A stretch of 34,581 nucleotides of DNA from Candidatus Latescibacterota bacterium (GCA_965223905.1 CBDCXV010000006.1:1-34581); one strand, 5' to 3'. Positions 2,301 through 30,523 are shown, counted from the stretch's first letter. Notes: generated by a model from the sequence alone, not told the origin. Numbers and translations: made by a program.

Positions 2301-2467
2301 TCTTCCCGAGCTGCCCAGCGCAGAGTGCGGGACGAAACCGGGAGAAACTTGAAAAGCCCTCCACCCGCTTCCCCTTCCGCTTGAATCGGTTCCCGTAAAG
2401 AACCCCGCCGCTGCGTATCGCGACAGGCACCCCCGGCTGTCCCGAGTTCGTCACACCATTCTTCGGC

Positions 2468-2488
2468 CTTACCCTGAGTGGGTAGGGA
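2468..2488. terminator. possible hairpin between convergent units
   Basis: CCTTACCC-TGAGT-GGGTAGGG stem with one G-U pair; no U-tract. Confidence 0.25.
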
Positions 2489-2503
2489 CAGCCACTCGAC
2501 AAG

Positions 2504-2960
2504 TCACCTCAAGGAGTCCTTGATCAACCCCCAGGAATCCTCGCGCACGGCAGAGTCCGAGGCGCCGACCAGAACCCCATCGGCAAAGCCGTCCGCCCAT
2601 CTAAAGCCTGCTCCATTTGCCAAATGCGGGTCCCGAATACGCTTGCCCGGGTCGACATCAAATATCCAGACCTCCAAGCCGATCACTTTGCCTGCCTCCA
2701 GATCCGATACGATGCTCTCTTGCGGATCCTCCCAGGAAAGGGCATCGACGACGTTACGTAGAACTGAATGACCGAGACGGTCGGATTCTCGCCGTACACC
2801 CCACCGCTGCTCTCGCTGTACGGCGGCTTCACCATCCAATCGTAGACCGGATGCCTTATATCGTGCATGATGCTCGCGCCCCAGATCCCCACGTTCGGTC
2901 CCACCGGGATACGCGCGATGGCGTCGTAAGGTTGCGCCAGACTGTAGGTTTCCAAAGCAA
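2504..2960 (-). pseudogene. 5'-truncated, frameshifted divergent paralog of the tandem CBM9-like genes
   Basis: Frame 1 gives AQPYDAIARIPVGPNVG...DWMVKPPYSESSGGVYGENPTVSVIQFYVT. After a 1-nt shift near 2748, frame 2 gives DALSWEDPQESIVSDLEAGKVIGLEVWIFDVD...ADGFADGVLV...SAVREDSWGLIK. Colinear with the C-terminal half of the array proteins. Confidence 0.75.
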
Positions 2961-2989
2961 GCTTCTCCGGCCCATCCAAGGTTCCTGCA

Positions 2990-3085
2990 TCGACTCGGGA
3001 CGGTCCGACACGGAACAGATGCTTCTCCCGTCCGGAGACCAGACAGGATGGTGATCCGCTCCCTCCTGGTCGGTCAGCCTTAACA
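2990..3085 (-). pseudogene. TolB/PD40-repeat fragment
   Basis: RLTDQEGADHHPVWSPDGRSICSVSDR resembles the last repeat of the 7831-8456 gene (KITQGPANDREPAWSPDGRSICFVSNR). Confidence 0.65.
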
Positions 3086-3231
3086 GGGCGAACGGCAAGA
3101 GCGATCATGGAATGTGCCGACTTCAAACGGCGGTTGGACAGGTCCATAGGATGATAGTCCACACCCGCTCGCAGCGGAGAAGCCTCGACCCCGCGATTGG
3201 TGTTCCCTGTATCCTTCGGGACTGGGGGAAA

Positions 3232-4158
3232 CTATTCGAAAGTCGCCTTGATTCGGGCCCAGGAATCGCTTTCGACCGCCGAATTGTCGGATGACAAGCC
3301 ATCTGGCGTAATCAGAACCCCGTCGGCGAAGTAGTCGGCTGACATATACAACAGATCCCTAAAAGATTCGTAGGATGGGGGGACTGCTAGTGGGTGGATG
3401 GTCTCTATCCCAGGCTGGCTATCAACGTCGAATACCTGAATGTTGAAACCGATGATCTTTCCGGCGAACAGATCGGACCCGTCACTGTCTTCCGGATTCC
3501 CCGTCGGTACCAAGCGGTCAAACGGCGTCACGTAGAATTCCGTCACCGAGAAGATGGGGGATCCGCCGACCACTGCGCCGCCTCCGTGTGCAAACGGAGG
3601 CTGACTGAACCAGTCCGGACTCAAATGATACGCATGGGGGGTGAGGCGAACCTGGGAGCCTCCGTCGAAAACCTCCCCGAGCGCATGGAAAACCTGCGCC
3701 TGCCAAGCGTTCTGCAGCCAATCCTCTGGACCTTCTTCGGGGTACACCACGCCGCCCGAGTGGTCTCCGTCAACGGCAAACTCCACCGAGGAGTCGTGGA
3801 AAACCATAACGTAATTCTCATCCTCGCGGTCGAATTCGTTGACGTATACGTCGTCGACCCTCTCCATGGCGAAGAAAATCCGGTCAGTGGCATCGTGCCA
3901 TCCAAGCCAGATGCGAAAATCCATATCAGAAGGATCGTACGAGCCACCATAAGGTTCCGCGAAGTCCAGCGGGGTGAGCGTGGGCTCCCCGACGATGTTT
4001 TCCCAGTCCTCGACGGAACCGTCCGTAACGTCGATCTCGGCGACGTCGCGGTCGGTCAACTGCACGATAGGATAGATGCGGTTCGCGGGTTGGGCGTCTG
4101 CGACAGAGAGGAAGCCTGCCAAGGAGAGGGCGAGCTTGAGCCAAATGGGGTGTTGCAT
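3232..4158 (-). CDS. secreted CBM9/DOMON-like protein, copy A (308 aa)
   Basis: Signal peptide MQHPIWLKLALSLAGFLSVADA|Q; DG..EDW, DSSVEFAVDGDHSGG and GKIIGFNIQVFDVD motifs resemble CBM9-like domains; tail SAVESDSWARIKATFE; AGGAGG RBS. Fold call is from motif recognition. Confidence 0.8.
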   Translation of the reverse strand: MQHPIWLKLALSLAGFLSVADAQPANRIYPIVQLTDRDVAEIDVTDGSVEDWENIVGEPTLTPLDFAEPYGGSYDPSDMDFRIWLGWHDATDRIFFAMERVDDVYVNEFDREDENYVMVFHDSSVEFAVDGDHSGGVVYPEEGPEDWLQNAWQAQVFHALGEVFDGGSQVRLTPHAYHLSPDWFSQPPFAHGGGAVVGGSPIFSVTEFYVTPFDRLVPTGNPEDSDGSDLFAGKIIGFNIQVFDVDSQPGIETIHPLAVPPSYESFRDLLYMSADYFADGVLITPDGLSSDNSAVESDSWARIKATFE

Positions 4159-4222
4159 CCTGTAATCCTCCTGCCAGAGGGGCGATCCCCGGTATCTTGA
4201 ACCGGTCTTTCCAGAGGCATCA

Positions 4223-4252
4223 ACTTTATTAATTCTGCTGTCCGGCTGTCAA
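4223..4252 (-). promoter_or_regulatory. sigma70-like promoter candidate in array spacer
   Basis: TTGACA-N18-TAAAGT upstream of copy A; equivalent sites upstream of B and C read TAGACA. Confidence 0.45.
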
Positions 4253-4399
4253 AAAGAATGGGTCCACCTCATGGAGAAGGTGTGGGGGAGAACCTGTCGA
4301 ACTGGGACAGGTCCATAGGAGGATAGTCCACACCCGCCCGTAGCGGAGAGGCCTCGCCCCGCGATTGGTGTTCCCTGTATCCTTCGGGCTTGGGGGAAA

Positions 4400-5333
4400 C
4401 TATTCGAAAGTCGCCTTGATCCGGGCCCAGGAATCGCTTTCGACCGCCGAATCGTCGGATGACAAGCCATCCGGCGTGACCAGAACCCCGTCGGCGAAGT
4501 CGTCTGCTGGAATCTGAAACAGACTCGCCCAGTAGGGCAATGGAGGTCTTGGGGCTGCTAGATGGTGGATGGTCTCCACCACCCCAGGCTGATCATCAAC
4601 GTCGGATACCTGAATGTTGAAACCGATGATCTTTCCGCCGAACAGATCGGACACGTCACTGTCTTCCGGATCCGCCGTCGGTACAAAGCGGTCAAACGGC
4701 GTCACGTAGAATTCCGTCACCGAGAAAATGGGGGATCCGCCAACCACTGCGCCGCCTCCGTGTGCAAACGGAGGCTGACTGAACCAGTCCGCACTCAAAT
4801 GATACGCATGGGGGGTGAGGCGAACCTGGGAGCCTCCGTCGAAAACCTCCCCGAGCGCATGGAAAATCTGCGCCTGCCAAGGGTTCTTCAGCCATTCCTC
4901 TGGAGATTCCTCGGGGAACACCGGGCCGCCCGAGTGGTCTCCATCAACGGCAAACTCCACCGAGGAGTCGTGGAAACTCATAATAAACAGACTCTCATCC
5001 TCCCGGTCGTGTTCGTTGACGTATACGTCGTCGACCCTCTCCATGGCGAAAAAAATCCGGTCAGTGGCATCGTGCCATCCAAGCCAGATGCGAAAATCCA
5101 TATCAGAAGGATCGTACGAGCCACCATAAGGTTCCGCGAAGTCCAGCGGGGTGAGCGTGGGCTCCCCGACGATGTTTTCCCAGTCCTCGACGGAACCGTC
5201 CGTAACGTCGATCTCGGCGACATCGCGCGGTCAATTGCATTATTGGATAGATGCGGTCCGGGGGTTGGGCGTTTGCGACAGAGAGGAAGCCTGCCAAGGA
5301 GAGGGCGAGCTTGAGCCAAATGGGGTGTTGCAT
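4400..5333 (-). pseudogene. CBM9-like copy B, frameshifted (or sequencing error)
   Basis: Full-length copy with a 2-nt deletion near 5227 (TTG ACC G--CGC GAT vs TTG ACC GAC CGC GAC in C), which separates the signal peptide from the body. Confidence 0.8.
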
Positions 5334-5576
5334 CCTGCAATCCTCCTGTCAGAGGGGCGATCCCCGGTATCTTGAACCGGTCTGCCCAGAGGCATCAACT
5401 TAATGATTCTGCTGTCCGGCTGTCTAAAAGAATGGGTCCACCTCATGGAGAAGGTGGTGGGGGAGAACCTGTCGAACTGGGACAGGTCCATAGGAGGACA
5501 GTCCACACCCGCTCGCAACGGAGAGGCCTCGACCCCGCGATTGGTGGTTCCCTGTATCCTTCGGGCTTGGGGGAAA

Positions 5577-6503
5577 CTATTCGAAAGTCGCCTTGATCCG
5601 GGCCCAGGAATCGCTTTCGACCGCCGAATCGTCGGATGACAAGCCATCCGGCGTGACCAGAACCCCGTCGGCGAAGTCGTCTGCTGAAATCCGGAACAGA
5701 GTCCAAAAATCGTTGGATGGGGGGGCTGCTAGTTGGTGGATGGTCTCCACCCCAGGCTGATCATCAACGTCGCATACGTGAATGTTGAAACCGATGATCT
5801 TTCCGCCGAACAGATCGGACACGTCACTGTCTTCCGGATCCGCCGTCGGTACAAAGCGGTCAAACGGCGTCACGTAGAATTCCGTCACCGAGAAAATGGG
5901 GGATCCGCCAACCACTGCGCCGCCTCCGTGTGCAAACGGAGGCTGACTGAACCAGTCCGCACTCAAATGATACGCATGGGGGGTGAGGCGAACCTGGGAG
6001 CCTCCGTCGAAAACCTCCCCGAGCGCATGGAAAATCTGCGCCTGCCAAGGGTTCTTCAGCCATTCCTCTGGAGATTCCTCGGGGAACACCGGGCCGCCCG
6101 AGTGGTCTCCATCAACGGCAAACTCCACCGAGGAGTCGTGGAAACTCATAATAAACAGACTCTCATCCTCCCGGTCGTGTTCGTTGACGTATACGTCGTC
6201 GACCCTCTCCATGGCGAAAAAAATCCGGTCAGTGGCATCGTGCCATCCAAGCCAGATGCGAAAATCCATATCAGAAGGATCGTACGAGCCACCATAAGGT
6301 TCCGCGAAGTCCAGCGGGGTGAGCGTGGGCTCCCCGACGATATATTCCCAGTCCTCGACGGAACCGTCCGTAACGTCGATCTCGGCGACGTCGCGGTCGG
6401 TCAACTGCATTATTGGATAGATGCGGTCCGGGGGTTGCGCGTTTGCGACAGAGAGGAAGCCTGCCAAGGAGAGGGCGAGCGTGAGCCAAATGGGTTGTTG
6501 CAT
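5577..6503 (-). CDS. secreted CBM9/DOMON-like protein, copy C (308 aa)
   Basis: Same framework, signal peptide, RBS and tail as copy A. Confidence 0.8.
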   Translation of the reverse strand: MQQPIWLTLALSLAGFLSVANAQPPDRIYPIMQLTDRDVAEIDVTDGSVEDWEYIVGEPTLTPLDFAEPYGGSYDPSDMDFRIWLGWHDATDRIFFAMERVDDVYVNEHDREDESLFIMSFHDSSVEFAVDGDHSGGPVFPEESPEEWLKNPWQAQIFHALGEVFDGGSQVRLTPHAYHLSADWFSQPPFAHGGGAVVGGSPIFSVTEFYVTPFDRFVPTADPEDSDVSDLFGGKIIGFNIHVCDVDDQPGVETIHQLAAPPSNDFWTLFRISADDFADGVLVTPDGLSSDDSAVESDSWARIKATFE

Positions 6504-6744
6504 CCTGTAATCCTCCTGTCAGAGGGGCGATTCCCGGTATCTTGAACCGGTCTGTCCAGAGGCATCAACTTTATTAATTCTGCTGTCCGGCTGTCTAAAA
6601 GAATGGGTCCACCTCATGGGGAAGGTGCGGGGGAGAACCTGTCGAACTGGGACAGGTCCATAGGAGGATAGTCCACACCCGCCCGTAGCGGAGAGGCCTC
6701 GCCCCGCGATTGGTGTTCCCTGTATCCTTCGGGCTTGGGGGAAA

Positions 6745-7668
6745 CTATTCGAAAGTCGCCTTGATCCGGGCCCAGGAATCGCTTTCGACCGCCGAATCGT
6801 CGGATGACAAGCCATCCGGCGTGACCAGAACCCCGTCGGCGAAGTCGTCGGCTGACATATACAACAGATGCCCATAAGATTCGTGGGATGGGGGGACTGC
6901 TAGTTGGTGGATGGTCTCTATCCCAGGCTGATCATCAACGTCGAACACCTCAATGTTGAAACCGATGATCTTTCCGGCGAACAGATCGGACACGTCACTG
7001 TCTTCCGGATCCCCCGTCGGTACCAAGCGGTCAAACGGCGTCACGTAGAATTCCGTCACCGAGAAGATGGGGGATCCGCCAACCACTGCGCCGCCTCCGT
7101 GTGCAAACGGAGGCTGAATGAGCCATTCCGCACTCAATAGATACGCATGGGGGACGAGGCCAACCTGGGAGCCCCCGTCGAAAACCTCCCCGAGCGCATT
7201 AAAAACCTGCACCTGCCAGACCCGCTCCTCTGGAGATTCCTCGGGGAACACCGCGCCGCCCGAGTGGTCTCCGTCAACGGCAAACTCCACCGAGGAGTCG
7301 TGGAAAACCATAACCTCATTCTCATTCTCATCCTCGCGGTCGAATTCGTTGACGTATACGTCGTCGACCCGCTCCATGGCGAAGAAAATCCGGTCAGTGG
7401 CATCGTGCCATCCAAGCCAGATGCGAAAATCCATATCAGAAGGATCGTACGAGCCACCAAAGGGTTCCGCGAAGTCCAGCGGGGTGAGCGTGGGCTCCCC
7501 GACGATGTTTTCCCAGTCCTCGACTGAACCGTCCGTAACGTCGATCTCGGCGACGTCGCGGTCGGTCAACTGCACGATAGGATAGATGCGGTCCGGGGGT
7601 TGGGCGTCTGCGACAGAGAGGAAGCCTGCCAAGGAGAGGGCGAGCTTGAGCCAAATGGGTTGTTGCAT
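6745..7668 (-). CDS. secreted CBM9/DOMON-like protein, copy D (307 aa)
   Basis: Same framework, signal peptide, RBS and tail as copy A. Confidence 0.8.
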   Translation of the reverse strand: MQQPIWLKLALSLAGFLSVADAQPPDRIYPIVQLTDRDVAEIDVTDGSVEDWENIVGEPTLTPLDFAEPFGGSYDPSDMDFRIWLGWHDATDRIFFAMERVDDVYVNEFDREDENENEVMVFHDSSVEFAVDGDHSGGAVFPEESPEERVWQVQVFNALGEVFDGGSQVGLVPHAYLLSAEWLIQPPFAHGGGAVVGGSPIFSVTEFYVTPFDRLVPTGDPEDSDVSDLFAGKIIGFNIEVFDVDDQPGIETIHQLAVPPSHESYGHLLYMSADDFADGVLVTPDGLSSDDSAVESDSWARIKATFE

Positions 7669-7830
7669 CCTGCAATCCTCCTGTCAGAGGGGCGATCCCC
7701 GGTATCTTGAACCGGTCGGCATCCCCAGCGTTGCGATCCACATGGGTTCATTTTCTGACCCTTGCGACATTCTTTCCTGTGAGCGACTGACCGGTCGACC
7801 CACCCGGACTGTCGTTCTTGCGGATTCAGC

Positions 7831-8456
7831 TCAAGGCTCTATGGCTCTAATGGCCCCCTCAACAGGGCGCGCTATCCACTGGGAGAACGCTTCCAGGACG
7901 GTCTCGCGTCTGTTGGAGACGAAGCAGATACTCCTTCCGTCAGGAGACCACGCCGGCTCCCTGTCGTTGGCCGGACCCTGCGTGATCTTGTTCACAGCCG
8001 ATCCATCAGCGGCGATACGGTAGATGTCGGAACTACCGCTTCGGTTCGATGCGAAAGCGATCTCCAAACCGTCAGGAGACCACGACGGCGCTTCGTCGCG
8101 AGCAGGATGATTACTGACATTGATCACTTCGCCGCCGTCGGCGTTGACAATACAGATTTCGCTTTCCCCGTAGCGGGTAGTCTGGAAGGCTATCCAGGAT
8201 CCGTCAGGAGACCACGACGGGCGCATGTCGAAGCTTTCGTGGTTGCTCAGGTTGCGGACATGCAATCCGTTCGTGTCAGCTGTGTAGACCTCGAAGTTAC
8301 CATCGCGTGCCGTGACGAACGCGATTCGACGGCCATCAGGGGACCATACGGGCGAAAATCCATCGCACACAATGCGCCTTGTCGTTTCCTGGGAAGCACC
8401 TTCAGGCCCAGGATCAGGCCGCAGGAGATCAGTACTGCAGGCTTGCGGGAGGTCAT
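7831..8456 (-). CDS. TolB-like PD40-repeat beta-propeller protein, probably frameshifted after its signal peptide
   Basis: Four PxWSPDG repeats. ATG at 8456 (GGAAGGT upstream) encodes signal-like MTSRKPAVLISCGLILGL, which joins EGASQETT... only with a 1-nt shift near 8403. Confidence 0.8.
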
Positions 8457-8555
8457 ACCTTCCAAACCGCCTTGCAGTGAGAGGAATCACCCCGGCTTCG
8501 CCCCGACCTCCCAACCTTTCCCAAGCACTAACCGGTGGTGACCAATGGTGAGGGC

Positions 8556-8591
8556 ATGATAGAGGGGGGGGGGGGGGGAGCGTGAAGTCAA
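8556..8591 (-). promoter_or_regulatory. sigma70-like promoter with a C15 homopolymer in the -35/-10 spacer
   Basis: Minus strand reads TTGACT-TCACGCT-C15-TC-TATCAT; spacer 24 nt; G15 on plus at 8564-8578. Confidence 0.55.
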
Positions 8592-9009
8592 GGATTTTTC
8601 AGTCATGTGACAATCCAGTAAAATATCCCGTCGGAAGGGCCGCCCTCGCGGCTGCCGGCTCGCAAGGGGCGTCCGAGTAAAGTCGGGGTATGGGGAAGGA
8701 AGTAATGTCCCCAGAATCCGCCTCCTGAATGCCCCGGGGTCTTAACCGACGAAGATCGCCCCGTCCGGCCAGTCGTCGTCGAGCATACAATCTGCCAGGC
8801 CCGAGAGACCGGTGTATTGCGGATGAGGTTACTAAAATTACGCTTGCTGAATTATGTATATATCACGGGGAGCACCCTAAAGTTGACATCACACCCCTCT
8901 GTATCAGGCGGAAAATTGTCAACTATTGACCGCTCCTGGTAATAAGTCCCGATGCCCTCCTTGGGGAACGATCAGACCTCGGCGCACTTGTGGCCTGGTG
9001 ACACGGCCG

Positions 9010-9864
9010 TCAAAAACGGCTCGGTTCGCTCATTTCCCGGCGTGCTTTGGCGACCAGGCCGGGCAGGTGGTCGGCATGGGCAAGGCGCTGTTCGAGGTGG
9101 CGCATGCGGGCGGCGTCCGCGGTCTCCACCATGAGGGGGGCGTACACCCGCTCGTACCAGAAACCGGCCAGGCTGGCTATGCACTCTCGCAGCAGGCCTT
9201 CGTCTTCCTCGCGGAAACGCTGCTGCAGGTTTATGGTGAACATGCGCCGGCGAGTGCCGCCGCCGAACGAAGCGTGTTTTATGCGGTGGTTGAAAACCAC
9301 CAGATCGCCCGGTTGCATTTCCAGGGCCACGCACGGGACGTCCGTTCCGGGAATGCCCCAATTCTCCTCGCTGTTGTTCGAGCCCGAGGTAGGGATCGTT
9401 TCATGAACCCCGTCGGCATAGGCTTCGCCGATCCTGTGACTCCCCGGCACAACCCGGAGGCAGCCGCTCAGGCGCCTCACTTCATCGAGATAGAAAGCCA
9501 GTTTGATCGAGCGGTAGCCCGGAGCCCGCCGGTAGCCGTCCGAATGCCAGGCCGTGTCGCCGGCGAAATAGTTGCCGTCACTGGACATGTAGTTGAAATC
9601 TGCGCCCAGGAGTGTGGTCCCGATGCTTTCTACGCGTTCGTCGTCGAGCAGCGCGCACAGATACGGATGCCGGTCAATAAAGGGCAGCAGGGCCGAATTC
9701 CGCTTGTCGTCGTGCGGGCGCTGGTTGTGGCCGCCCCCGTGCTCCGACCACACCGCCTCGAAGGCTTGGGTAATGGCTTCGGCTTCGCTGGCAAAGAGGC
9801 GGGGAAAGTACAAATAGCCGAACAGATCGAAGAAGCGGGCTTTCTGGCTCGTCATCGCGGACAT
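9010..9864 (-). CDS. phytanoyl-CoA dioxygenase (PhyH) family Fe/2OG oxygenase, 284 aa
   Basis: FDLFGYL, WHSDG (HxD), GCLRVVPGSH, PGDLVVFNHRIKHAS, RR; ATG at 9864 with GGAGGA RBS. Confidence 0.9.
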   Translation of the reverse strand: MSAMTSQKARFFDLFGYLYFPRLFASEAEAITQAFEAVWSEHGGGHNQRPHDDKRNSALLPFIDRHPYLCALLDDERVESIGTTLLGADFNYMSSDGNYFAGDTAWHSDGYRRAPGYRSIKLAFYLDEVRRLSGCLRVVPGSHRIGEAYADGVHETIPTSGSNNSEENWGIPGTDVPCVALEMQPGDLVVFNHRIKHASFGGGTRRRMFTINLQQRFREEDEGLLRECIASLAGFWYERVYAPLMVETADAARMRHLEQRLAHADHLPGLVAKARREMSEPSRF

Positions 9865-10058
9865 GAGAAGTCCTCCAATTCGGTCATCTCCTTCTCCTGG
9901 ATCGGTCAACGTCGGTTGTTGATACACAACCGAAGCAGGCCTCGCAAGCATCGCACGCCCTGGCGGTCCTGGCCATGCGGACAGCAAGGGTCCACCTTTA
10001 CCCCGCTCGGGGAAGTTGAAACCCGGAGAAACGTCATATCGGGGAACGGAAACAGAAA

Positions 10059-11672
10059 ATGAACGCAGACGAAGATTATGGATTCGACGTGGCGGGTTTT
10101 CTCCATGTGCCGCAGGTGCTCTCGGCCGCAGAGGTAGCAGCCTGCAACGAGGCGATAGACGCTGCCGGGCGGGAGGAGGACATGCTCGAGTGGCCGGCGC
10201 CGCATGGGGACCCTTTTCAAGCGCTGCGGGAACACCCGGTTCTGAGCGGCTATGTCGAGTCGCTTTGCGGCGCTGGCTTCGCGATCGACAAGCCGCCGGC
10301 ATTGCTCGGCGACGGCAGCGTCGCGGGCCCGGTCCCCCTTTCGGCAGGGGCTCACGAGCGCTGCCGCCGCCTGCGCTATGCCAACTACTCCGATACGCGG
10401 GTCAGCAAGGGAGTCAGGGTATTCCTGGCGCTGGCACCCACGCCGGAATCCGGGGGCGTCGTCCTGGTTCCGGCCAGCCACAATAGATTCCAGGAACCGC
10501 CGCCCGACTTCCTCTCCGGGGCAAAGGATCTCGGGATGACCGAGGAGCCCGTGCTCGAAGCCGGAGATCTGCTCATCTGTGCGGCGACGCTGCTTTGCGG
10601 GGTTCGCGGCCTGCCCGGACGCGTCCTCGAGATGGAGTTCATCAGCCCGGGGGTCAGGCCTGCAGCGGGGTATGCCGAGATCGAAGCTCCGGAATGGACC
10701 GCCGGGTTGACGGCGGCGCAGATGGCCGTCGTCGGCAACAGGACGACGGGGCGCGGCGGCACGGTCGTCTCCGACGGCGAGCGCGCCTGGGTGGAGACGG
10801 TCGAGGAGCCGCCGCCGTCCGTGACCATCAACCTGGACGGACACAGCAAGCCGGATCCCGAGGAACTGTGGTTCTGGGACGTCCGCGGCTACCTCGTGGT
10901 TCGAGGGGTGATGGACGAGGAGTGGCTCGCCGCGGCGAACCGCGCCATCGATGCGGCGATGGCAATGCAGGACCGCCTGCCGGAGGGTCATCCGTCGCGC
11001 ATCGAGGAGGTCCCTGAACAGGCCCTGCGCGAAAACGACTGGAAGTGGCCGGAGGACACTTCTCCGAGGCTCTACGGCGAAATCAACCGGCCGCGAATCG
11101 GCGGACTCTACCAGCTGCCGGAGCCGCATTGCCAGCCGTTTCGCCGCATGATCGGGCACCCTGCCGTCGTCAAACGGCTGAACTGGATGCTCGGATACGG
11201 TTTCCGGGAATCGACGGAACCGATGTGCTGCGTCTACCCGAAAAGGACCTGCGGCGGTTCGCTGCACGGCCAGAACCCGGGGGGCTACACCGAATACAAC
11301 GGACGCCAGCTCGTGGAGCAGACCAATGTGGCGTGGGCCCTGCAGGACGAGTCGCCCGGGTTCGGCGAGGACAGCGGAGGGTTCCTCTGCGTACCGGGAA
11401 GTCACAAGGCGAACTACCCGATCCCGAGGAATCTGACCACCAGTATCGATCTGCCCCAGGTCTGCAAGCCGCCCCTGAAGGCCGGCGACGTCCTCTTTTT
11501 CGGCGGTGTCGCCCACGGCACGACGGCGTGGCGCAGCGACTGGATGCGGCGGACGACCATCCAGTTCATGGGTTCGGGCAACGTGGCCCTACCACCGGGG
11601 AAGAAGGGGGCCGGCTGGCGCTGGAGCTCCGACCCGAACAACCCGGCCAAGCCGGTGCCGGACACGGGGTGA
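10059..11672 (+). CDS. tandem two-domain PhyH-family protein, 537 aa
   Basis: Two PhyH-like modules: FDVAGFLHV...GGVVLVPASH...LEAGDLL and WDVRGYLVV...GGFLCVPGSHK...LKAGDVLFF..AHGT. Confidence 0.85.
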   Translation: MNADEDYGFDVAGFLHVPQVLSAAEVAACNEAIDAAGREEDMLEWPAPHGDPFQALREHPVLSGYVESLCGAGFAIDKPPALLGDGSVAGPVPLSAGAHERCRRLRYANYSDTRVSKGVRVFLALAPTPESGGVVLVPASHNRFQEPPPDFLSGAKDLGMTEEPVLEAGDLLICAATLLCGVRGLPGRVLEMEFISPGVRPAAGYAEIEAPEWTAGLTAAQMAVVGNRTTGRGGTVVSDGERAWVETVEEPPPSVTINLDGHSKPDPEELWFWDVRGYLVVRGVMDEEWLAAANRAIDAAMAMQDRLPEGHPSRIEEVPEQALRENDWKWPEDTSPRLYGEINRPRIGGLYQLPEPHCQPFRRMIGHPAVVKRLNWMLGYGFRESTEPMCCVYPKRTCGGSLHGQNPGGYTEYNGRQLVEQTNVAWALQDESPGFGEDSGGFLCVPGSHKANYPIPRNLTTSIDLPQVCKPPLKAGDVLFFGGVAHGTTAWRSDWMRRTTIQFMGSGNVALPPGKKGAGWRWSSDPNNPAKPVPDTG

Positions 11673-11680
11673 CCTCCTCC

Positions 11681-12541
11681 ATGACGGGTGAACGCCTCCT
11701 CTATGAGATGCACATGCACACGCCGCTGTGCCGGCACGCCCGCGGGGAGCCGGAAGAGTACGCCGAGGTAGCGCAGCGGCGCGGGCTGCGGGGAATCGTC
11801 GTCACCTGCCACAACCCGACAAACGATGGCTGGTCGCGGGACGCGCGCATGAGCGTCGCTGAATTCGACCGCTACGTAGACCTGGTCGAACGGGCGCGGA
11901 CGGCGTGGGCGGGACGGGTGGATGTCCGCCTCGGCATGGAAAGCGACTATGTCCCCGGAATGGAACCGTGGCTGGAGGAGCTGCACGGCAAAGCGGATTT
12001 CCATCACGTCCTCGGTTCCGTTCACCCCCACCTGAGGGAATACAAGGAGCGCTACCATACCGGCGACTTCCAAGCGTTTCAGCGAACCTACTTCGAACAT
12101 CTGGCGATGGCGGCGGAGACCGGGCTCTTCGACACCATCGCCCATCCCGACCTGGTCAAGATCACGGCCCCGGCGGAATGGAGTTTCGAGCGCGCCGCCG
12201 ATGCCGTTCGCCCCAACCTCGACCGCGTTGCCGCTGCCGGCACGGCGATGGAGTTGAACACCTCCGGACTCAACAAGAACCCGTCCGAAATGAACCCCGG
12301 CCGTGAAATGCTCGGCGAGATGCACGAACGCGGCATTCCGGTCGTAGTAGGTGCCGACGCCCACGACCCGCACAGGGTGTCGGCAAACTTCGAGGACGCC
12401 CTCGACGTGCTGAGCGAAGTCGGGTACACGAGTGTCAACATCTTCCTCGACCGTCAGCGCCGGGAGATCCCCATCGACCGGGCCCAGGCAAGCCTGGTGG
12501 GGAATGCGCAGACAACTGCGGACGCCCCACTGACTGCATGA
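11681..12541 (+). CDS. PHP-domain histidinol-phosphatase (HisJ-like), 286 aa
   Basis: HMHTPLCRHA, TCHNP, GMESDY, GSVH, IAHPDLVK, ELNTSG and GADAH motifs. Confidence 0.88.
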   Translation: MTGERLLYEMHMHTPLCRHARGEPEEYAEVAQRRGLRGIVVTCHNPTNDGWSRDARMSVAEFDRYVDLVERARTAWAGRVDVRLGMESDYVPGMEPWLEELHGKADFHHVLGSVHPHLREYKERYHTGDFQAFQRTYFEHLAMAAETGLFDTIAHPDLVKITAPAEWSFERAADAVRPNLDRVAAAGTAMELNTSGLNKNPSEMNPGREMLGEMHERGIPVVVGADAHDPHRVSANFEDALDVLSEVGYTSVNIFLDRQRREIPIDRAQASLVGNAQTTADAPLTA

Positions 12542-19976: not shown

Positions 19977-20723
19977 TCAACCGAAACGCCTGAGATCCGC
20001 CTTGTACTCCCAGCCGAGAAGCTCCCTGGCGCGGTCGACGTCGCAGGTGGCCGCGGCTTCCGGCGTCCCGGCGGCGTGGAAGACGTCGAATTGGACGCTG
20101 TCCGTCTCCAGCGCCAGCCGGCACCCCTCGGCGAGGTCGTGGCGGCAGACCCAGCTTTCGCTGAACCCCGTCATCGGCGTGCCCCCCTTGTTGATCCCGA
20201 GGCGCGCGTCGACGATCGAGCACGGGCGCAGCACGATGATCGACAGCCCCTTGCCCTCGTGAAACTGCCGGCACATCTCCTCCTGCAGGCGCTTGGTGAC
20301 CGCGTAGAGACTGGCGTCGGGGCGCCTTACCTCAGGTCCGAAGAAGATCCCCTCCGGGTGCCTCGTCTGCGCCGAGCCGACGTGGACGACGCGCGCGATG
20401 CCTTTGCGGTCGCAGATCTCGAGCACGTTCCACAGGCCCTTCAGGTTGATGGTGAAGGGCAGGACGTCGCCGTCGCGGTACTCCCCTCCGAGCATGGCGA
20501 GGTGAATGACGCCGTCGATTCCGTCGAGGGCGCTCTCGACTGTCGCGAAGTCGGAGATGTCCCCGTGAACGATCTCCCCCTGCGTCCACTCGCCGTCGAT
20601 CTCCGCGGACTGCTCCCAGGCCTCCGGGCCGGAGTCGAAGGCGCGGATATCGTGCATGCCCTCCAGGTTTGCCAGCACCGCCCGGCCTACCCAGCCGGCA
20701 GCGCCCAGTACCAAGACTTTCAC
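19977..20723 (-). CDS. NAD(P)-dependent epimerase/dehydratase-family SDR (uronate dehydrogenase-like)
   Basis: GAAGWVG, GDISD, VIHLA and YAVTK (YxxxK) motifs. Confidence 0.88.
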   Translation of the reverse strand: MKVLVLGAAGWVGRAVLANLEGMHDIRAFDSGPEAWEQSAEIDGEWTQGEIVHGDISDFATVESALDGIDGVIHLAMLGGEYRDGDVLPFTINLKGLWNVLEICDRKGIARVVHVGSAQTRHPEGIFFGPEVRRPDASLYAVTKRLQEEMCRQFHEGKGLSIIVLRPCSIVDARLGINKGGTPMTGFSESWVCRHDLAEGCRLALETDSVQFDVFHAAGTPEAAATCDVDRARELLGWEYKADLRRFG

Positions 20724-20791
20724 CTCATTCCTCCTTGCTTGCCCGGGTCAGGGGCATAAGCTACGTTGGGAAACAGGCGTCAGACAGCAGC

Positions 20792-20868
20792 GCACCCATA
20801 GCTCAATTGGATAGAGCATCTGGCTTCGGACCAGAGGGTTGGGGGTTCGAGTCCTCCTGGGTGCGCCA
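20792..20868 (+). tRNA. tRNA-Arg(UCG)
   Basis: 77 nt GCACCCA...TGGGTGC-G-CCA; anticodon arm TCTGG-CT TCG GA-CCAGA; T-arm GGGGG-TTCGAGT-CCTCC. Confidence 0.96.
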
Positions 20869-20887
20869 TTTTTTTGGCCCTTCCGCG

Positions 20888-21508
20888 ATGAAACTCGCCC
20901 GCTTTCTACTGGTCCTTTTCTGGTGCTGGCCGCTGACTGTCTCGGGGCAGGAATCGGCAATCTCCGGTGTGTGGGAGCTGCATTCCGAGGATGGCTTCGG
21001 ATCGGTTTCGCTGCGCCTGCAGACTTCGGCAGACGGCAGCCTTTCCCTGAAAGCCACGGGGAGAGCCGGCCCCGAGCTGCTCGACCTGGTCGGGGATGAG
21101 CTCGCCTTCCTTCCGGACAGTCTCGTGGCCGCGGTCGACGGCGCCGGTACCTGGCGGGCGGACGGCGATTCCCTGCGCATCTCCTGGTCGCAGCTGGACA
21201 TCGCCGTAAACGGCGTGCCGATTGCCCGTTTCATCGACGCGCTCGTCGCCGATCTCGCGGACTCCCTGGCAGATGATTTCCAGCTGGAGGAAGAGGAGCT
21301 CGAAGCGTTCCGGGAGTCGGTGGCGAGCATGCTGCTCGGCCAGCTCTCCGGCCTGCTGTTCCTCGACGATTCCGTGGCCGCCCGCTTCAGCGTCGAAGAG
21401 GACCGCCTGACGCTGACGACCTCGGATGGCTCGGTGACGCTCTATCGTGCCGGCGGGGACAGCGCGGTCCGGACCGCCAGCTGGGGCCGCGTCAAGATCA
21501 CACGATAG
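20888..21508 (+). CDS. secreted hypothetical protein with C-terminal SWGRVK tail, 206 aa
   Basis: Signal peptide MKLARFLLVLFWCWPLTVSG|Q; lipocalin-like IxGxW start; tail SAVRTASWGRVKITR. Confidence 0.75.
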   Translation: MKLARFLLVLFWCWPLTVSGQESAISGVWELHSEDGFGSVSLRLQTSADGSLSLKATGRAGPELLDLVGDELAFLPDSLVAAVDGAGTWRADGDSLRISWSQLDIAVNGVPIARFIDALVADLADSLADDFQLEEEELEAFRESVASMLLGQLSGLLFLDDSVAARFSVEEDRLTLTTSDGSVTLYRAGGDSAVRTASWGRVKITR

Positions 21509-25949: not shown

Positions 25950-28117
25950 CGCAGGCGCTCGCGGGCCGGCTGCGGCCGCTCCTGGCCGCGGGGCTGTTTC
26001 TCCCTGCCGCCCTCTCCGCCGCGGGCGAGGTCCCGCCCGACACCACGGCCGCCGAGTCGGCAACCCCCTTGCAGTTGCCCGCGGTGGAAGTCACCGCCAC
26101 CCGGGTGCCGTCGCCGCTGCAGGAGGTCCCGTTCAGCGTCGACCGGCTCGGCGCCGGCTCCTTTCGCGGAGAACCCGGGGTCTCCCTCGACGAAGCCCTG
26201 CGGCAGCTTCCCGGAGTCGCCGTGAGCGACCGCGGCAACCTGTCGCAGGGGGACCGCGTCTCGATCCGCGGCATCGGCAGCCGCGCCAGCTTCGGCGTGC
26301 GCGGCATCCGCGTCCTGTTGGACGACGTGCCCCTGACCATGCCGGACGGCCAGTCGCAGCTCAACAACCTCGACCTCCACGCCATCGGGGAGGCCGAGGT
26401 GCTGCGCGGGCCGAGCTCCTGGCTCTACGGCAACGCCGCCGGAGGCGTCATCCATTTCCGCACCCGCCCCGCGGCTGCCGCGGCCGGTTTCGAGCCGGCG
26501 GTGATCGTCGGCTCGGACGGCATGAGACAGGTGCGGGCGTCCGCTGATTTCTCGCGCTCCGGGCACGCTCTCCTTCTCAGCGCCGGCCAGCTCGAGCGGG
26601 AAGGGTACCGCGATCACGCAAGCGGCCTCTGGCGGCGCTTCAATTTCGCCGGCACCCACCCGGTCTCCGGGTCGGTTGCGGTAACCTCGGTGTTCAATTT
26701 CGTCGACGCCCCCTACCTGCTGAATCCGAGCTCCCTGTCCCGCGAGGCCGCGGACAGCGACCCGCGCAGCGCCCGCTTCTTCGTGCGCTCCCAGGGCGCC
26801 TCGAAGCGGTTGCGCCAGGGACAGGGGGGGTTGACGCTGACCGCGGCCCGCGGCCGCAGCCATCTGCAGCTCACCCTCTACGGTCTGGCGCGCTCCCTCG
26901 ACAACCCGATTCCCGGCCGCATCATCGAGCTCGACCGCCGCGGCGGCGGGGTGCGCTCGACCTTCACCCGGCCCCTGCGCCTGGCCGGCAGGGAGGCGCG
27001 CCTGACGGCAGGGGTCGACATCGAAGGCCAGTGGGACGAGCGCGCCGAGTTCGCCAACGAGGGGTTGCCGGAGGAGCGGATCGACGCCCTGCCTGCCTCC
27101 GAGGTGCTCGACGCCGTCGTCTACGGAGAGCGCTCGCTGCTGCAGGACGAGCAGGTGACCGGCCTCGGACCGTTCGCCGCCTTCGACCTCAAGCTGTCTC
27201 CGCGCTTGACCCTGTCGGCAGGCGGCCGTTTCGACCGCTACCGGTTCGAAGCCGGGGACCGCCACCTCGCCGACGGCAGCGACGACAGCGGGGAGCGCAC
27301 CATGAGCCGGTTCAGCCCCGCCATCGGGGTCGCCTTCGCCCCCCGGGAGCAGGTCACCGCCTTCGCCAACTACGCCACCGCCTTCCAGACCCCGACCACC
27401 GTCGAGCTGAACAACCGCCCCGGTGGGGCCGGCGGCTTCAACCCCGACCTCGACCCGGAGCTGCTGCGCAGCCTGGAGGCCGGGCTCAGGGGAGCGTGGA
27501 CCCGGCCGGCACTGGAGTACTCCCTGGCGCTCTTCCGCTTCACCCTCGACGACATGCTGATCCCGTATCAGCTCGCCGGCAGCGACGAGATCTTCTACCG
27601 CAACGCCGGACGCACGGGCAACCGCGGCCTGGAGACGCGGGTCTCCTGGGCGCCGCGGCCGCGGTGGAGGCTTTCGCTGAGCTACTCGTTCGGCGACTTC
27701 ACCTTCGAGGAGTTCGCCGTCGAGAGAGACGGGAAACCGGTGCAGCTCGCCGGCAACCAGGTGCCGGGCACGCCGCGCCACCAGCTCTGGTCGCAGCTGG
27801 AGTACCGCCTCTCCGCATTCACGGGCCGGCTCGAGCTGCGCCGGGTAGGGGAGTACTTCGCCAACGATTTCAACGGGCCGCCCCCGGGAGTCGACAAGCC
27901 TCGGGGCGACTACGTCAACCTCGCCTTCACCACCCTCGACCTCCGCCTCGCGCTGCGGTCGCGGTGGCCTCGCCCCCTGGAGCTGTTCGCCGGCGCCGGC
28001 AATCTCCTCGACGCCGCCTACAGCGGCTCGGTGGTGCCCAACGCCTTCGGCGACCGCTTCTTCGAGCCGGCCCCCGGGCGTTCCGCTGACGCCGGGCTCT
28101 CGCTCCTGTTTGACTGA
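25946..28117 (+). CDS. TonB-dependent receptor, YncD/PqqU-like, 723 aa
   Basis: TonB box VEVTATR; plug SIRGIGSRASFGVRGIRVLLDDVPLTMPDGQSQ; EVLRGPSS.LYG; FFEPAPGR; GTG start overlaps the upstream TGA. Confidence 0.92.
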   Translation: MTQALAGRLRPLLAAGLFLPAALSAAGEVPPDTTAAESATPLQLPAVEVTATRVPSPLQEVPFSVDRLGAGSFRGEPGVSLDEALRQLPGVAVSDRGNLSQGDRVSIRGIGSRASFGVRGIRVLLDDVPLTMPDGQSQLNNLDLHAIGEAEVLRGPSSWLYGNAAGGVIHFRTRPAAAAAGFEPAVIVGSDGMRQVRASADFSRSGHALLLSAGQLEREGYRDHASGLWRRFNFAGTHPVSGSVAVTSVFNFVDAPYLLNPSSLSREAADSDPRSARFFVRSQGASKRLRQGQGGLTLTAARGRSHLQLTLYGLARSLDNPIPGRIIELDRRGGGVRSTFTRPLRLAGREARLTAGVDIEGQWDERAEFANEGLPEERIDALPASEVLDAVVYGERSLLQDEQVTGLGPFAAFDLKLSPRLTLSAGGRFDRYRFEAGDRHLADGSDDSGERTMSRFSPAIGVAFAPREQVTAFANYATAFQTPTTVELNNRPGGAGGFNPDLDPELLRSLEAGLRGAWTRPALEYSLALFRFTLDDMLIPYQLAGSDEIFYRNAGRTGNRGLETRVSWAPRPRWRLSLSYSFGDFTFEEFAVERDGKPVQLAGNQVPGTPRHQLWSQLEYRLSAFTGRLELRRVGEYFANDFNGPPPGVDKPRGDYVNLAFTTLDLRLALRSRWPRPLELFAGAGNLLDAAYSGSVVPNAFGDRFFEPAPGRSADAGLSLLFD

Positions 28118-29085
28118 GCCTCGGCACCTTCCGCCTTGCGCAGGCGGGCGACGAAGAACCCCTCCATGACGCCGTCGGGCCAGATCCGCAGGGCCCGCTT
28201 CAGGCCCGGGTCCAGCTCCTTCTTGCGCCAGCGCGTGATTCCCGCGGACCCGGAGGCCAGCGCAAGCTCGATCCCCTCCAGGCGCAGGCAGCCGAAGCGC
28301 CGCAGGGCCCACTCGACGACGAGCTCGTTCTCTTCCGGGGCGAAGGTGCAGGTGCAGTAGACGAGCAGACCGCCCGGCCTCAGGGCCCGGACCGCGGAGT
28401 ACAGCAGCCGCCTCTGCCGGCGGCCCATCTCCCGGATCTTCCTCTCGCTCCAGCGCGCCAACGGCCGGGGGTCCGTTGTCGTGAAGCGGCCCTCCCCGGT
28501 GCAGGGGGCGTCGAGGAGGACGCGGTCGAAATGCTCCGGCCGCACCCTCCAGACGCCGGCCCCGTCCCTGAGATAGGTGTCGGCGTTCTCCACTCCGAGC
28601 TGCTCGAGGGTGCTCCGCAGGCGGAAGAAGCGCGGCCGCGACGACTCCACCGCGGCGATGCGGCCGCTGTTTCCCATGAGAGCGGCGATGTGGGAGGTCT
28701 TGCCGCCTGGCGCCGCGGCGAGGTCGAGCACCTCTTCCCCCGGCTGCGGATCGAGCACCAGGGCTGGGATCATGCTCGAGGGGTTCTGAATGAACAGCCG
28801 GCCCTCGGCGTTGGCCCGCGTCTCGGTCAGGGCGCGCCGCTGCTCTCCGCCGACCGCGAAGGCGCCGTCGATCCCGGGCACGGGACGCAGCGCGAACCCC
28901 GAGGACTCCAGCTCCGCCCGCAGCGAGCCGGCGTCCGTTTTCAGGCTGTTGCAGCGGAAGGCGGTGGCCCGCTCCTGCTCGAAGGCCGACCAGTCGACCT
29001 CGACCCCGGCATGCGACCCGATTCCGGTCAGGCGCTCGACGAAGGCCGGCGGCAGCGCGGTCCCGGATTCGGACAGACTCTCCAT
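28018..29085 (-). CDS. RsmB/RsmF (NOL1/NOP2/Sun) RNA m5C methyltransferase
   Basis: DLAAAPGGKT, LLDAPCTG, YCTCTF..EENE and EGFFVARL motifs; no NusB-like N-domain or RsmF C-domains evident. Confidence 0.92.
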   Translation of the reverse strand: MESLSESGTALPPAFVERLTGIGSHAGVEVDWSAFEQERATAFRCNSLKTDAGSLRAELESSGFALRPVPGIDGAFAVGGEQRRALTETRANAEGRLFIQNPSSMIPALVLDPQPGEEVLDLAAAPGGKTSHIAALMGNSGRIAAVESSRPRFFRLRSTLEQLGVENADTYLRDGAGVWRVRPEHFDRVLLDAPCTGEGRFTTTDPRPLARWSERKIREMGRRQRRLLYSAVRALRPGGLLVYCTCTFAPEENELVVEWALRRFGCLRLEGIELALASGSAGITRWRKKELDPGLKRALRIWPDGVMEGFFVARLRKAEGAEAQSNRSESPASAERPGAGSKKRSPKALGTTEPL

Positions 29086-29407
29086 GTATCTATGCCCCCT
29101 CCACCGGATGGCCCGGCGCCCGTTTCCCGTTCGACGCCGGGAGCCGCGCGGGACGCTCGAGTCCCCGGATGCTCCGACATACGTTTCGGCTGGTCCGTCT
29201 GCTGCGGGGCTGGCGTGCTTTCAAGGTCGTCCTCTCCTGCTTTACGTGCCATGTAACCGCGCTTGGGGTAGTTTGTGCGCGACACTGTGGAACACCGGAG
29301 ACCCGGTCAAGGACCTGAAACCCACGGCAGGTCCGAGCCCTCACAGGCCGCAGCTTCGGCGAATTGCCTGCCCGACTGTGCCGGCTTTGTGCCCCGAGGA
29401 GAATGAG

Positions 29408-30427
29408 ATGGCGAGGATTCTGCGACAGGCCACCGTCGTGCGTGACGGAAATCACAACGCCTTCACCGATCTTCAGTACTGGCAGGGATGCTACTGGGTA
29501 GCGTACCGCAAGGGCGCGGGCCACGTATCCATGGATGGCGCCGCGACCCTTTCAGTGTCCTGCGACCGCACCCGATTTCGCGAAGTCGCGCAGATTCACA
29601 CGCCCGGCGACAATCGCGACCCCAAGCTTCTGCCGGTGAGCGAGGACCGGATGGCCCTGTACTTCCCGAGCTGGACACGCGGCTACGAGGCCCGGGAACT
29701 GCAGCAATACATCACCTTTTCGGGTGACGGACACGATTGGGAGAAACCCGCTCCCATCCTCTCCTCCGGAAATTGGCTCTGGCGCGTCCGGCGACACGAC
29801 GATCGCTACTACGGACTGATCCAGAACCTTGCCGGGGAGTGGGACCGCGAGGGCATGCCGCACCAGCTCGACCTGGCAGTGAGCGACGACCTGCTCGAGT
29901 GGGAGGTCATCGCCCGGGTTGGCGAGGAGTACGGGCTGAACGAAAGCGACATTTACTGGCGGGACGATGGCGAAGCCTGGATCGTCTCGCGCAGCGTGGT
30001 CAAGCACTTCGGCAGCTGCTTCTGCTCGGCGCAGCCGCCCTACACCGAGTGGCAGGCTACCGAGCTGTCGCCGATGGTGCATGCGCCCGTTTTCCTGCAC
30101 TGCGAAGGAGAGCTCTACGTCGCCGGCCGCAACATGCCTTCCGTCGAAGGGGACGTCACCTTTCCGTTCAAGTCCGCCAGCCTGGGCATCTGGCGGGTCC
30201 GACGCGAAGAGCTCGAACCCGTCCTGCGCATTCCCGCTACCGGCGATTGCTCCTATCCCGGCATGATCCTGGACCCCGAAGGCCGAGTCTGCTTGAGTTA
30301 CCACTCTCAGCACGCATATCACATGGGGGTGCTGCCCCTCCCGTCGCGGGTCCGGCCGCATCCCGACAACGCCGCCTCCCTGCTGGAGGCGGATGACGTG
30401 TACTTCGCCGAACTCGAACTGCCGTGA
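29408..30427 (+). CDS. sialidase/BNR-like beta-propeller protein, 339 aa
   Basis: HNAFTDL, RDPKL, SGDGHDW, WLWRV and GDCSYPG motifs; GAGGAG RBS. Confidence 0.75.
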   Translation: MARILRQATVVRDGNHNAFTDLQYWQGCYWVAYRKGAGHVSMDGAATLSVSCDRTRFREVAQIHTPGDNRDPKLLPVSEDRMALYFPSWTRGYEARELQQYITFSGDGHDWEKPAPILSSGNWLWRVRRHDDRYYGLIQNLAGEWDREGMPHQLDLAVSDDLLEWEVIARVGEEYGLNESDIYWRDDGEAWIVSRSVVKHFGSCFCSAQPPYTEWQATELSPMVHAPVFLHCEGELYVAGRNMPSVEGDVTFPFKSASLGIWRVRREELEPVLRIPATGDCSYPGMILDPEGRVCLSYHSQHAYHMGVLPLPSRVRPHPDNAASLLEADDVYFAELELP

Positions 30428-30523
30428 GCCGCGCACTCACACCACAGCCGCCGGGGATGGAAATCGGCCGCACCGACACCGTCGAGCTGGGCTGACCCCG
30501 CAAACCCGCACCGTCCGTCTCCG

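Follow-up and report, generated by a model that had tools for sequence, protein, structure and literature searches.

The stretch of DNA analysed here, called the window below, is a whole contig of 34.6 kb (34,581 nucleotides; GCA_965223905.1 CBDCXV010000006.1:1-34581) of Candidatus Latescibacterota bacterium, whose genome of 7.9 Mb is distributed over 11 contigs, is 93.6% complete and has 5.1% contamination. Its minus strand carries a tandem array of four gene copies, in the order D, C, B and A. We consider it probable that this array, with its three intact genes and one pseudogene, is a young tandem expansion of a family that is specific to the lineage and encodes exported, stand-alone proteins with the CBM9 fold, and that the loops of these proteins are diversifying around a binding slot.

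Self-BLAST places the limits of the repeated block at exactly 3136-7717, which are the coordinates given in an earlier note on this DNA made from the sequence alone, and resolves it into four head-to-tail units of 1165-1175 bp that are 92.5-93.4% identical. The start codons lie on the minus strand at 7668 (D), 6503 (C), 5333 (B) and 4158 (A), spaced by 1165, 1170 and 1175 bp, and each unit comprises one open reading frame (ORF) of 307-308 codons, a ribosome-binding site (RBS), a signal peptide and a conserved spacer of about 240 bp. Tandem Repeats Finder gave no match, the period of the array being above its 500-bp limit. The earlier note had described four near-identical copies; four units are indeed there, but it had missed a 2-bp deletion near 5227/5228 in copy B, which shifts the frame as seen from the sequence and the unit alignment (Table 1). 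By tblastn, copy B is found as two pieces (5223-5333 and 4403-5230), and the sole ORF listed for it starts at an internal ATG at 5101. Copy B is a pseudogene.

The array does not stand alone in the genome. Three further close paralogs, E, F and G, 82-85% identical to A, are located on two other contigs; tblastn matches in the genome number 77, and a family profile (E<=1e-5) finds 85 ORF pieces, 37 of which cover at least 260 of the 315 profile positions. The other 48 are partial, and many of them are adjacent fragments, i.e. broken copies. When this genome and 30 relatives were searched, 15 of the 31 had a match at E<=1e-20. The numbers of matches are 42, at least 74 and 61 within the genus and 31 in one other genome of the same taxonomic family; the remaining genomes of that taxonomic family have 0-6, and two sister families, represented by 12 genomes, yielded none. 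Relatives whose genomes are assembled into one or two contigs have runs of six consecutive genes, from which it follows that tandem arrays are normal for the family. A scan of genome contigs yielded one locus, a single copy in the metagenome-assembled genome OZ242214.1 of a Candidatus Latescibacterota (locus L013), and a scan of metagenome contigs yielded no relative. We see in the array one recent burst of a large family that is lineage-specific and evolves by birth and death. The four-copy repertoire proposed in the earlier note is present as an array, but within the family, which has dozens of loci per genome, its copies form a young branch. A literature search for CBM9 expansion or hypervariability gave nothing relevant among the matches listed, and no bacterial CBM9 example was found in print; what is accessible of PMC6081418 only reports CBM9-annotated proteins in a sponge metaproteome, and the accessible part of PMC12993501 does not mention this family.

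Could the array be an artefact of assembly, made by joining the alleles that co-existing strains have of a single gene? The short contig that makes up the window belongs to a genome with some contamination, the far end of the contig is 96-99% identical to another short contig, and the public sequencing-run contigs (Logan), which are short, do not bridge the copies, none of them spanning two. The units, however, differ by about 7% and have distinct spacers, close copies are found at two other loci with different flanks, and runs of four to six family genes are present in relatives assembled into one to three contigs. In addition, B and C have identical stretches of more than 500 bp, which would be expected to interrupt a short-read assembly, not to generate an array in it. 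We regard such an artefact as very improbable.

Window positions 26435-32468 and 33667-34581 are 99.2% and 96.1% identical to contig C4 (1-6033 and 10082-10996, respectively). The short contigs may therefore be strain variants or represent a large duplication, which bears on the trust to be placed in the assembly of this contig.

The variable segments V0 to V4 were defined on the seven close paralogs (A-D together with E, F and G) in the numbering of A. The fifth segment, V0, appears once E, F and G are included; the peptide strings given for V1-V4 in the earlier note are all present as written. Its picture of a constant framework with the differences concentrated in segments was borne out by the clustering tests. 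Among A-D, 58 of the 297 mature alignment columns are variable. The corresponding 54 variable residues on A have a dispersion index of 2.65 (12-residue windows), a value reached by none of 10,000 permutations, and 39 of the 54 belong to the most variable third among 56 distant homologs (Fisher odds ratio 8.1, p 1e-10); a cruder statistic, the presence of a variable neighbour within 3 residues, was marginal (p 0.05). Indels occur in V0, V1, V2 and V4 and are in frame by the unit alignment, and the differences in the V segments are mostly non-synonymous by Nei-Gojobori counts, both as described before. The supposed richness in aromatics did not hold: F, W and Y make up 13.0% of the V segments versus 12.3% of the framework.

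The Nei-Gojobori counts were pooled over the 21 pairs of the seven close paralogs. For the framework they gave a proportion of synonymous differences (pS) of 0.085 and of non-synonymous differences (pN) of 0.025 (pN/pS 0.29), and for the V segments a pS of 0.152 and a pN of 0.207 (pN/pS 1.36). V3 alone reached 6.9, and V0, V1, V2 and V4 were in the range 0.97-1.25. Because the V segments had been chosen after seeing the data, the sites were re-classed by an independent entropy, calculated from 56 homologs less than 55% identical to A. From the low through the middle to the top third of entropy, pN/pS rose from 0.19 via 0.52 to 1.41 (bootstrap 1.01-2.05), and at the top 15% of the sites it was 2.21 (bootstrap 1.39-4.34).

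Codon site models (self-written, F3x4, all branch lengths optimised) were fitted to the seven paralogs and three orthologs from two related genomes. Under M0, omega was 0.66. M2a (lnL, the log-likelihood, -3858.25) was superior to M1a (lnL -3900.50) with a likelihood-ratio test statistic (LRT) of 84.5, placing 13% of the sites at omega 4.3, and all sites with P>0.95 in M2a fall in V segments. Since recombination is present, the test was also made on three partitions with separate trees, for which the LRT was 18.2, 26.4 and 39.1. When copy B and the gap-adjacent columns were dropped (252 of 305 columns kept), it was 3.9, 21.7 and 23.0, the first of these values belonging to the V0/V1 partition, for which neutrality was not rejected (p 0.14). 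Six simulations of the M1a null on mosaic partition trees, analysed on one tree, gave an LRT of 0, 0, 0.55, 3.9, 4.6 and 6.75. Positive selection on V2, V3 and V4 is well supported, within the limits set by a home-made implementation and ten sequences; that on V0 and V1 depends on gap-adjacent columns. The idea of the earlier note that the loops are diversifying has thus withstood testing, omega being above 1 in loops by entropy classes, M2a, partitions and comparison with null simulations.

The copies are mosaics. In the PHI (pairwise homoplasy index) test none of 2000 permutations was as low as observed, with or without B (p<=0.0005), and the partition trees have different topologies. From the start of the listed B ORF (5101) onwards, B and C agree at all framework codons, synonymous differences being absent as well, and in the V segments they are set apart by indels and by 19 substitutions that fall almost entirely in V4. 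V2 and V3 are common to D and G, V1 is common to A and G, and V4 is of one type in F, D, A and G and of another in C and E. In other assemblies, the V4 of B is found letter for letter in P0007 and the V4 of C in P0025, there beside quite different V1 and V2. As far as alignments can tell, this mosaic pattern is the signature of gene conversion, inter-locus conversion included, which would move loop cassettes and homogenise the framework. That pS is higher in the V segments agrees with cassettes of greater age than the present frameworks; part of the divergence in these segments would then be older or imported by conversion rather than new.

A simpler view is that these are ordinary paralogs with unconstrained surface loops, in which relaxed selection and gene conversion of the framework act without any adaptive diversification. 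The pooled pN/pS near 1 in four of the five segments, the raised pS in the V segments and the V0/V1 partition that lost significance upon masking all suit this view, as do the 48 partial ORF pieces, which are what birth-and-death under weak constraint is expected to leave. M1a, however, already holds a neutral class and is nevertheless beaten by M2a, in the other two partitions also after masking, with LRT values above those of all the null simulations. Furthermore, the pN/pS at the top 15% of the independently variable sites is 2.21, the loops remain in frame and in the same length class, and identical cassettes recur from assembly to assembly. We consider it unlikely that relaxed selection is the explanation.

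A dedicated mutator, either a diversity-generating retroelement (DGR) or silent-cassette switching, is hardly credible, although there are 6 reverse-transcriptase (RT) matches in the genome, copy B could serve as silent donor and a cassette-like replacement of V4 was seen. None of the RT matches lies on this contig, and the one closest to a close paralog is about 64 kb away from it; a genome-wide BLAST of the array found gene copies only and no template repeat; and the variants are distinguished by indels, a kind of change that DGRs do not produce. An individual start codon and signal peptide are retained in three of the four copies and in E, F and G, and the RBS is common to the four units, which means that there is no single expression site. 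The array was rejected as a DGR target on the grounds of the RT, the template repeat and the indels, and as a silent-cassette system of the pilE/pilS type because all four units keep the ATG, the RBS, the signal-peptide sequence and a promoter-like site or similar aligned sequence. The term "antibody-like" used in the earlier note holds as an analogy of architecture; a targeted or somatic diversifier was not found by these searches, and what is present is a germ-line repertoire of paralogs.

The protein of copy A was modelled with AlphaFold2 from an 84-sequence alignment as a beta-sandwich (predicted local distance difference test, pLDDT, 79.7; predicted template-modelling score, pTM, 0.81). 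The confidence of the model is lowest in the signal peptide, in V2, V3 and V4 and in the last 17 residues, with a pLDDT below 50 at residues 1-23 and, in V2, the lowest of any loop (58 at residues 141-150). All five V segments fall between strands, the stretch that contains V3 exceeding its counterpart in canonical CBM9 by about 40 residues. Aligned with VIA-align, the model gave Z scores of 19.4 with 7nwn, 19.0 with 7nwo and 18.7 with 1i82_A, on which 188 of 189 residues were superimposed with a root-mean-square deviation of 2.5 Å, and the top three structures in Foldseek are CBM9 structures (E 2.6e-9 to 2e-8). The next match by VIA-align is a stand-alone protein from Bacteroides (Z 17.0), followed by DOMON-type haem subunits at Z of about 11 (NxrC 10.9, ethylbenzene dehydrogenase gamma subunit 10.7; the cytochrome domain of cellobiose dehydrogenase reached only 6.2). 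Of the two folds that the earlier note had named for comparison, CBM9 (Z about 19) scores well above DOMON (Z about 11).

On the sequence level the relationship is distant. Pfam gave no match for A, C and D even at E<=10, none of the 84 family members matched PF06452 (CBM9_1) at E<=0.1, NCBIfam gave no match to the family, and a search of the PDB sequences with a narrow family profile found none. A bridge is provided by a distant paralog on contig C2 of the same genome, which scores 34.5 bits on PF06452 (cut-off 23.4) and is matched by the family profile with an hhalign probability of 99.2% (E 6e-20, 262 columns). A widened family profile matches 1i82_A at E 0.0012. In the nearest ESM Atlas clusters, the commonest phyla of which are Latescibacterota, Gemmatimonadota and Poribacteria, CBM9_1 is found in 37%, 13% and 100% of the members. 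The ORFs of 307-308 residues consist of signal peptide, domain and tail only, with no catalytic domain by Pfam, and contain the invariant residues D130, D132 and G136 in the motif VDGDHSGG, which might bind metal; CBM9 modules have three calcium sites. Judged by the model and the profile comparisons, the family is to be regarded as a divergent, stand-alone, exported branch of the CBM9 fold; the designation "CBM9-like" chosen in the earlier note can be retained for the fold and for the bridge to CBM9_1 but has no direct Pfam match behind it.

According to the accessible part of PMC8280721, Trp71 and Trp175 of TmCBM9-2 form a sugar clamp and Gln96 hydrogen-bonds the sugar; in CkCBM9.3 the clamp is Tyr89/Trp191. 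Two agreeing routes, one from the paralog to 1i82_A (phmmer) and from the paralog to the family (hhalign), the other from the widened profile to 1i82_A, would place Trp71 at residue 120 (end of V1), Trp175 at residue 271 (V4) and Gln96 at residues 145-147 (V2). V1, V2 and V4 thus align with the canonical CBM9 ligand site, in agreement with the earlier proposal of a binder family, and since the fold is matched with Z of about 19 they should meet at the canonical slot. By these weak alignments, residues 120/271 are F/Y in A and D, F/Q in B, F/R in C, L/A in E, H/L in F and F/S in G; other loop aromatics could substitute at the clamp. Residue 271 is the only site with P>0.95 in the masked V4 partition (partition 3), where the class omega is 12.6. 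With the clamp incomplete in most copies the ligand need not be a sugar. We infer nevertheless that the proteins may bind glycans and that the loops may form one site.

This raises the question whether the fold has been put to a non-glycan use, as a DOMON-type cofactor or redox module or as a protein-protein adaptor, the loops of which contact a protein partner. Such a role would be consistent with the DOMON-type haem subunits NxrC and ethylbenzene dehydrogenase gamma as second-tier structural matches, with the lack of the clamp aromatics in five of the seven close copies, with the PD40 propeller gene that adjoins both the array and paralog E, and with the fact that the proteins are not joined to any glycoside hydrolase. 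CBM9 modules, however, score far higher, the sequence bridge leads to CBM9_1, and no haem-ligand pair stands out among the invariant columns, for which no dedicated conservation test was made. We hold a non-glycan role to be distinctly improbable.

The reading of the array as a young expansion of CBM9-fold binders with diversifying loops has to be weighed against the following. With respect to fold and slot, CBM9_1 is matched by no family member directly, the mapping of the CBM9 site rests on sequence alignments with domain scores of only 10-15 bits, and both clamp positions are aromatic in only two of the seven close copies. With respect to selection, the codon models were self-implemented and applied to 10 sequences with naive empirical Bayes posteriors, omega can be overestimated as a result of cassette swaps and of misalignment in loops rich in indels, pS is raised in the V segments along with pN, and V0/V1 did not depart from neutrality after masking. 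Finally, the order of the array is without independent confirmation from the public run contigs, and so is the frameshift in B.

All family members end in ...[ST]AVExx[ST]W[AG]RIKAxx. The general tail motif is [ST]-A-V-x3-[ST]-W-[GA]-x-[IVL]-K, followed by 0-15 residues and the stop codon. In a census of 35,869 six-frame ORFs of at least 100 residues, the pattern W[AG]x[IVL]K occurred 157 times, 107 times within 15 residues of a stop codon, and the 107 ORFs with such a tail comprise 51 of the family and 56 others. In most of these 56, the family profile is matched at no more than its final 20 or so positions, if at all; four look like distant members. Positions not required by the search pattern are also kept in the 56 (T/S at -7 in 46, V/I at -5 in 41 and S/T at -1 in 51) and third codon positions are free, indicating that the tail is conserved at the protein level. 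When 20 of the 56 were scanned with Pfam, 13 had domains and 7 had none. At least ten kinds of domain were found, namely PD40, WD40, LVIVD, molybdopterin oxidoreductase (Oxidored_molyb), FGE-sulfatase, Temptin_C, FlgD_ig, Sortilin/BNR, lamin-tail (LTD) and CBM9_1. Within the window, the ORF 20510-21505 (+) ends with the tail motif, too (...DSAVRTASWGRVKITR). Since at most 15 residues follow the motif, there is no room for a membrane-spanning stretch and the tail is unlike an exosortase-type signal. NCBIfam returned no tail model for the four proteins scanned, and a literature search for the motif strings gave nothing relevant among the matches listed. We regard the tail as a new candidate sorting or docking tag.

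The spacer upstream of A contains a promoter-like TTGACA-18-TAAAGT at 4252-4223 and that upstream of C a TAGACA-18-TAAAGT, both by consensus match only; the aligned sequence upstream of B is similar. In the spacers, AGGAGG is positioned 8 nucleotides before the ATG. By the unit alignment the spacer of B resembles that of D and the spacer of C that of A. An Rfam scan of 2400-8800 gave no family. In L013, the ortholog (5959-7200) is followed by spacer-like sequence, noticed as a similar peptide in a spurious ORF translation, and the inter-copy spacer may be conserved beyond this genome. From the RNA-library run X20, five contigs of about 100-290 bases are 95-99+% alike to the window, three of them matching B and C (e.g. 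4639-4924 and 5736-5836), a fourth, short one matching D and the fifth the PD40 gene upstream, which is no proof that the copies are transcribed.

Both flanks of the array contain PD40 sequence. A duplicate of window 6621-8278, a segment that takes in copy D together with the 3' two-thirds of the upstream PD40 ORF, is present on contig C1 with 92.8% identity; the two loci are paralogous rather than allelic, because the flanks beyond differ. In the remnant downstream of A, the homolog part occupies three different frames and has the tail motif at its end (...SAVREDSWGLIKDSLR); by BLAST the remnant is 91% identical to C1:1337019-1337477. Public contigs of three runs part from the window at 3082, which indicates a junction there. 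PD40 genes or fragments lie directly upstream of family members at several loci (window 7831-8514 and 2981-3082; C1:93559-96148 and C1:1333053-1337477). The PD40 ORF adjoining the array stops abruptly after a repeat, and PD40 proteins elsewhere in the genome bear the same C-terminal tail as the CBM9-like family. Just upstream of this ORF, at 8560-8580, there is a run of about 15 C on the minus strand, at which one public contig is 3 bases shorter.

Further upstream, two ORFs for PhyH (phytanoyl-CoA dioxygenase), 9010-10302 (-) and 10059-11672 (+), overlap on opposite strands at 10059-10302, so that at least one start call is probably too long. The PhyH pair is followed by a PHP-domain ORF at 11687-12541 (+); no link of the PhyH and PHP ORFs to the array was found. 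Other ORFs picked in the window mostly had no Pfam match, and for these the strand choice may be wrong.

Table 1. Array, copies, variable segments and neighbouring features in the window (residues in the numbering of copy A)
Feature	Position	Strand	Basis
Tandem block, four units	3136..7717	-	self-BLAST; unit alignment
Copy D, intact, 307 aa, 90% identical to A	6745..7668	-	ORF
Copy C, intact, 308 aa, 86-87% identical to A	5577..6503	-	ORF
Copy B, broken gene	4400..5333	-	sequence; unit alignment
Copy A, intact, 308 aa, protein used for modelling	3232..4158	-	ORF
Signal peptide of A, residues 1-22, ...LSVADA/QP (slash, predicted cleavage), without lipobox cysteine	4093..4158	-	read from sequence; cleavage site inferred
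V0 of A, residues 67-73	3940..3960	-	seven-paralog alignment; two sites P>0.95 in M2a
V1 of A, residues 108-121	3796..3837	-	seven-paralog alignment
V2 of A, residues 137-158	3685..3750	-	seven-paralog alignment; many sites P>0.95
V3 of A, residues 170-186	3601..3651	-	seven-paralog alignment
V4 of A, residues 241-275	3334..3438	-	seven-paralog alignment
C-terminal tail of A, residues 292-308, ...SAVESDSWARIKATFE	3235..3285	-	motif census; pLDDT <50, short helix 300-306
Spacer upstream of A	4159..4399	-	alignment; consensus scan
Equivalent spacers	5334-5576 and 6504-6744	-	unit alignment
Spacer sequence upstream of D, 49 bp	7669-7717	-	unit alignment
PD40 beta-propeller ORF upstream of array	7831..8514	-	Pfam PD40, E 4e-42
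Remnant downstream of A: PD40 fragment, then divergent homolog of CBM9-like domain	2504..3100	-	ORFs; profile matches on two pieces

We propose that the family works as follows. Each unit would be self-contained, being equipped with an RBS, a Sec signal peptide and either a promoter-like site or the sequence aligned with one, and the copies are presumably expressed. The mature protein of about 285 residues would fold as a CBM9-type beta-sandwich, in which V1, V2 and V4 would surround the slot where CBM9 clamps the sugar between two aromatics, with V0 and V3 probably near. As the copies differ mainly in the slot loops, the positions equivalent to the clamp included, they might have different ligand specificities. 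New variants would arise by ordinary mutation, namely by positively selected substitutions and in-frame indels; gene conversion would carry loop cassettes between copies and loci while keeping the framework near uniform; and duplication together with decay, as in copy B, would turn the family over. The conserved tail may send the proteins to a common destination or partner.

A more far-reaching proposal, which we put forward as a tentative one, is that the family forms a germ-line repertoire of lectin-like receptors for glycans of hosts, prey or polymers, with slot loops that are selected and shuffled, and that these receptors are routed by an undescribed tag also present on about 50 unrelated proteins, which would imply that Latescibacterota and allied phyla have a sorting or anchoring pathway not yet recognized. 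CBM9, known as a conserved helper module of xylanases, occurs here as a free exported protein in dozens of copies within one lineage, and the fastest change appears, by alignment, to be at the positions that hold the sugar in the solved CBM9 modules. If the copies bind different ligands, they constitute a natural binder library on one scaffold, which would help to understand how uncultured Latescibacterota recognize polymers or hosts and could be a starting point for the engineering of glycan probes. The tail suggests a protein-sorting signal that is absent from current family libraries.

Of the known systems, the CBM9 modules of xylanases from thermophiles (TmCBM9-2, 1I82; CkCBM9.3, 7NWN/7NWO) are alike in the beta-sandwich over the whole module and share with the family the sequence motifs IDG..D.W, W.D...LY.A..V.DD, D..E.F.D and G..IGF...V.D.D. 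CBM9 modules, however, are appended to enzymes, whereas the proteins of this family are stand-alone and exported. The family also differs from CBM9 in being about 95 residues longer, with some 40 extra residues around V3, in scoring below the Pfam threshold, in having variable instead of conserved clamp aromatics, in its extra conserved C-terminal tail and in its dozens of paralogs per genome. BACUNI_03838, a putative carbohydrate-binding protein of Bacteroides uniformis (4JPQ), is likewise stand-alone and has the same fold (Z 17.0, 199 residues aligned) but only 8% sequence identity to this family. For BACUNI_03838 we know of no multi-copy hypervariable arrangement.

As systems for comparison we take the variable proteins of DGRs, such as Mtd of the Bordetella phage, and the cassettes of antigenic variation, such as pilE/pilS of Neisseria. 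In outline, they have in common with the array a constant scaffold with variation at ligand-contacting residues, and in the cassette systems segments are exchanged by gene conversion as they appear to be here. Unlike in DGRs, there is neither an RT nor a template repeat, no adenine-specific pattern is seen, and indels are present; unlike in the cassette systems, each intact copy is a complete gene that has its own start codon and signal peptide, and no single expression site exists. Animals offer a further parallel in lectin-like families that have expanded in tandem and diversify under selection, for example the C1q-domain proteins of bivalves, which, according to the accessible part of PMC6835236, likewise arose by tandem duplication of a secreted lectin-like domain with variable binding surfaces, but which, unlike this family, are eukaryotic and immune-related and have a different fold.

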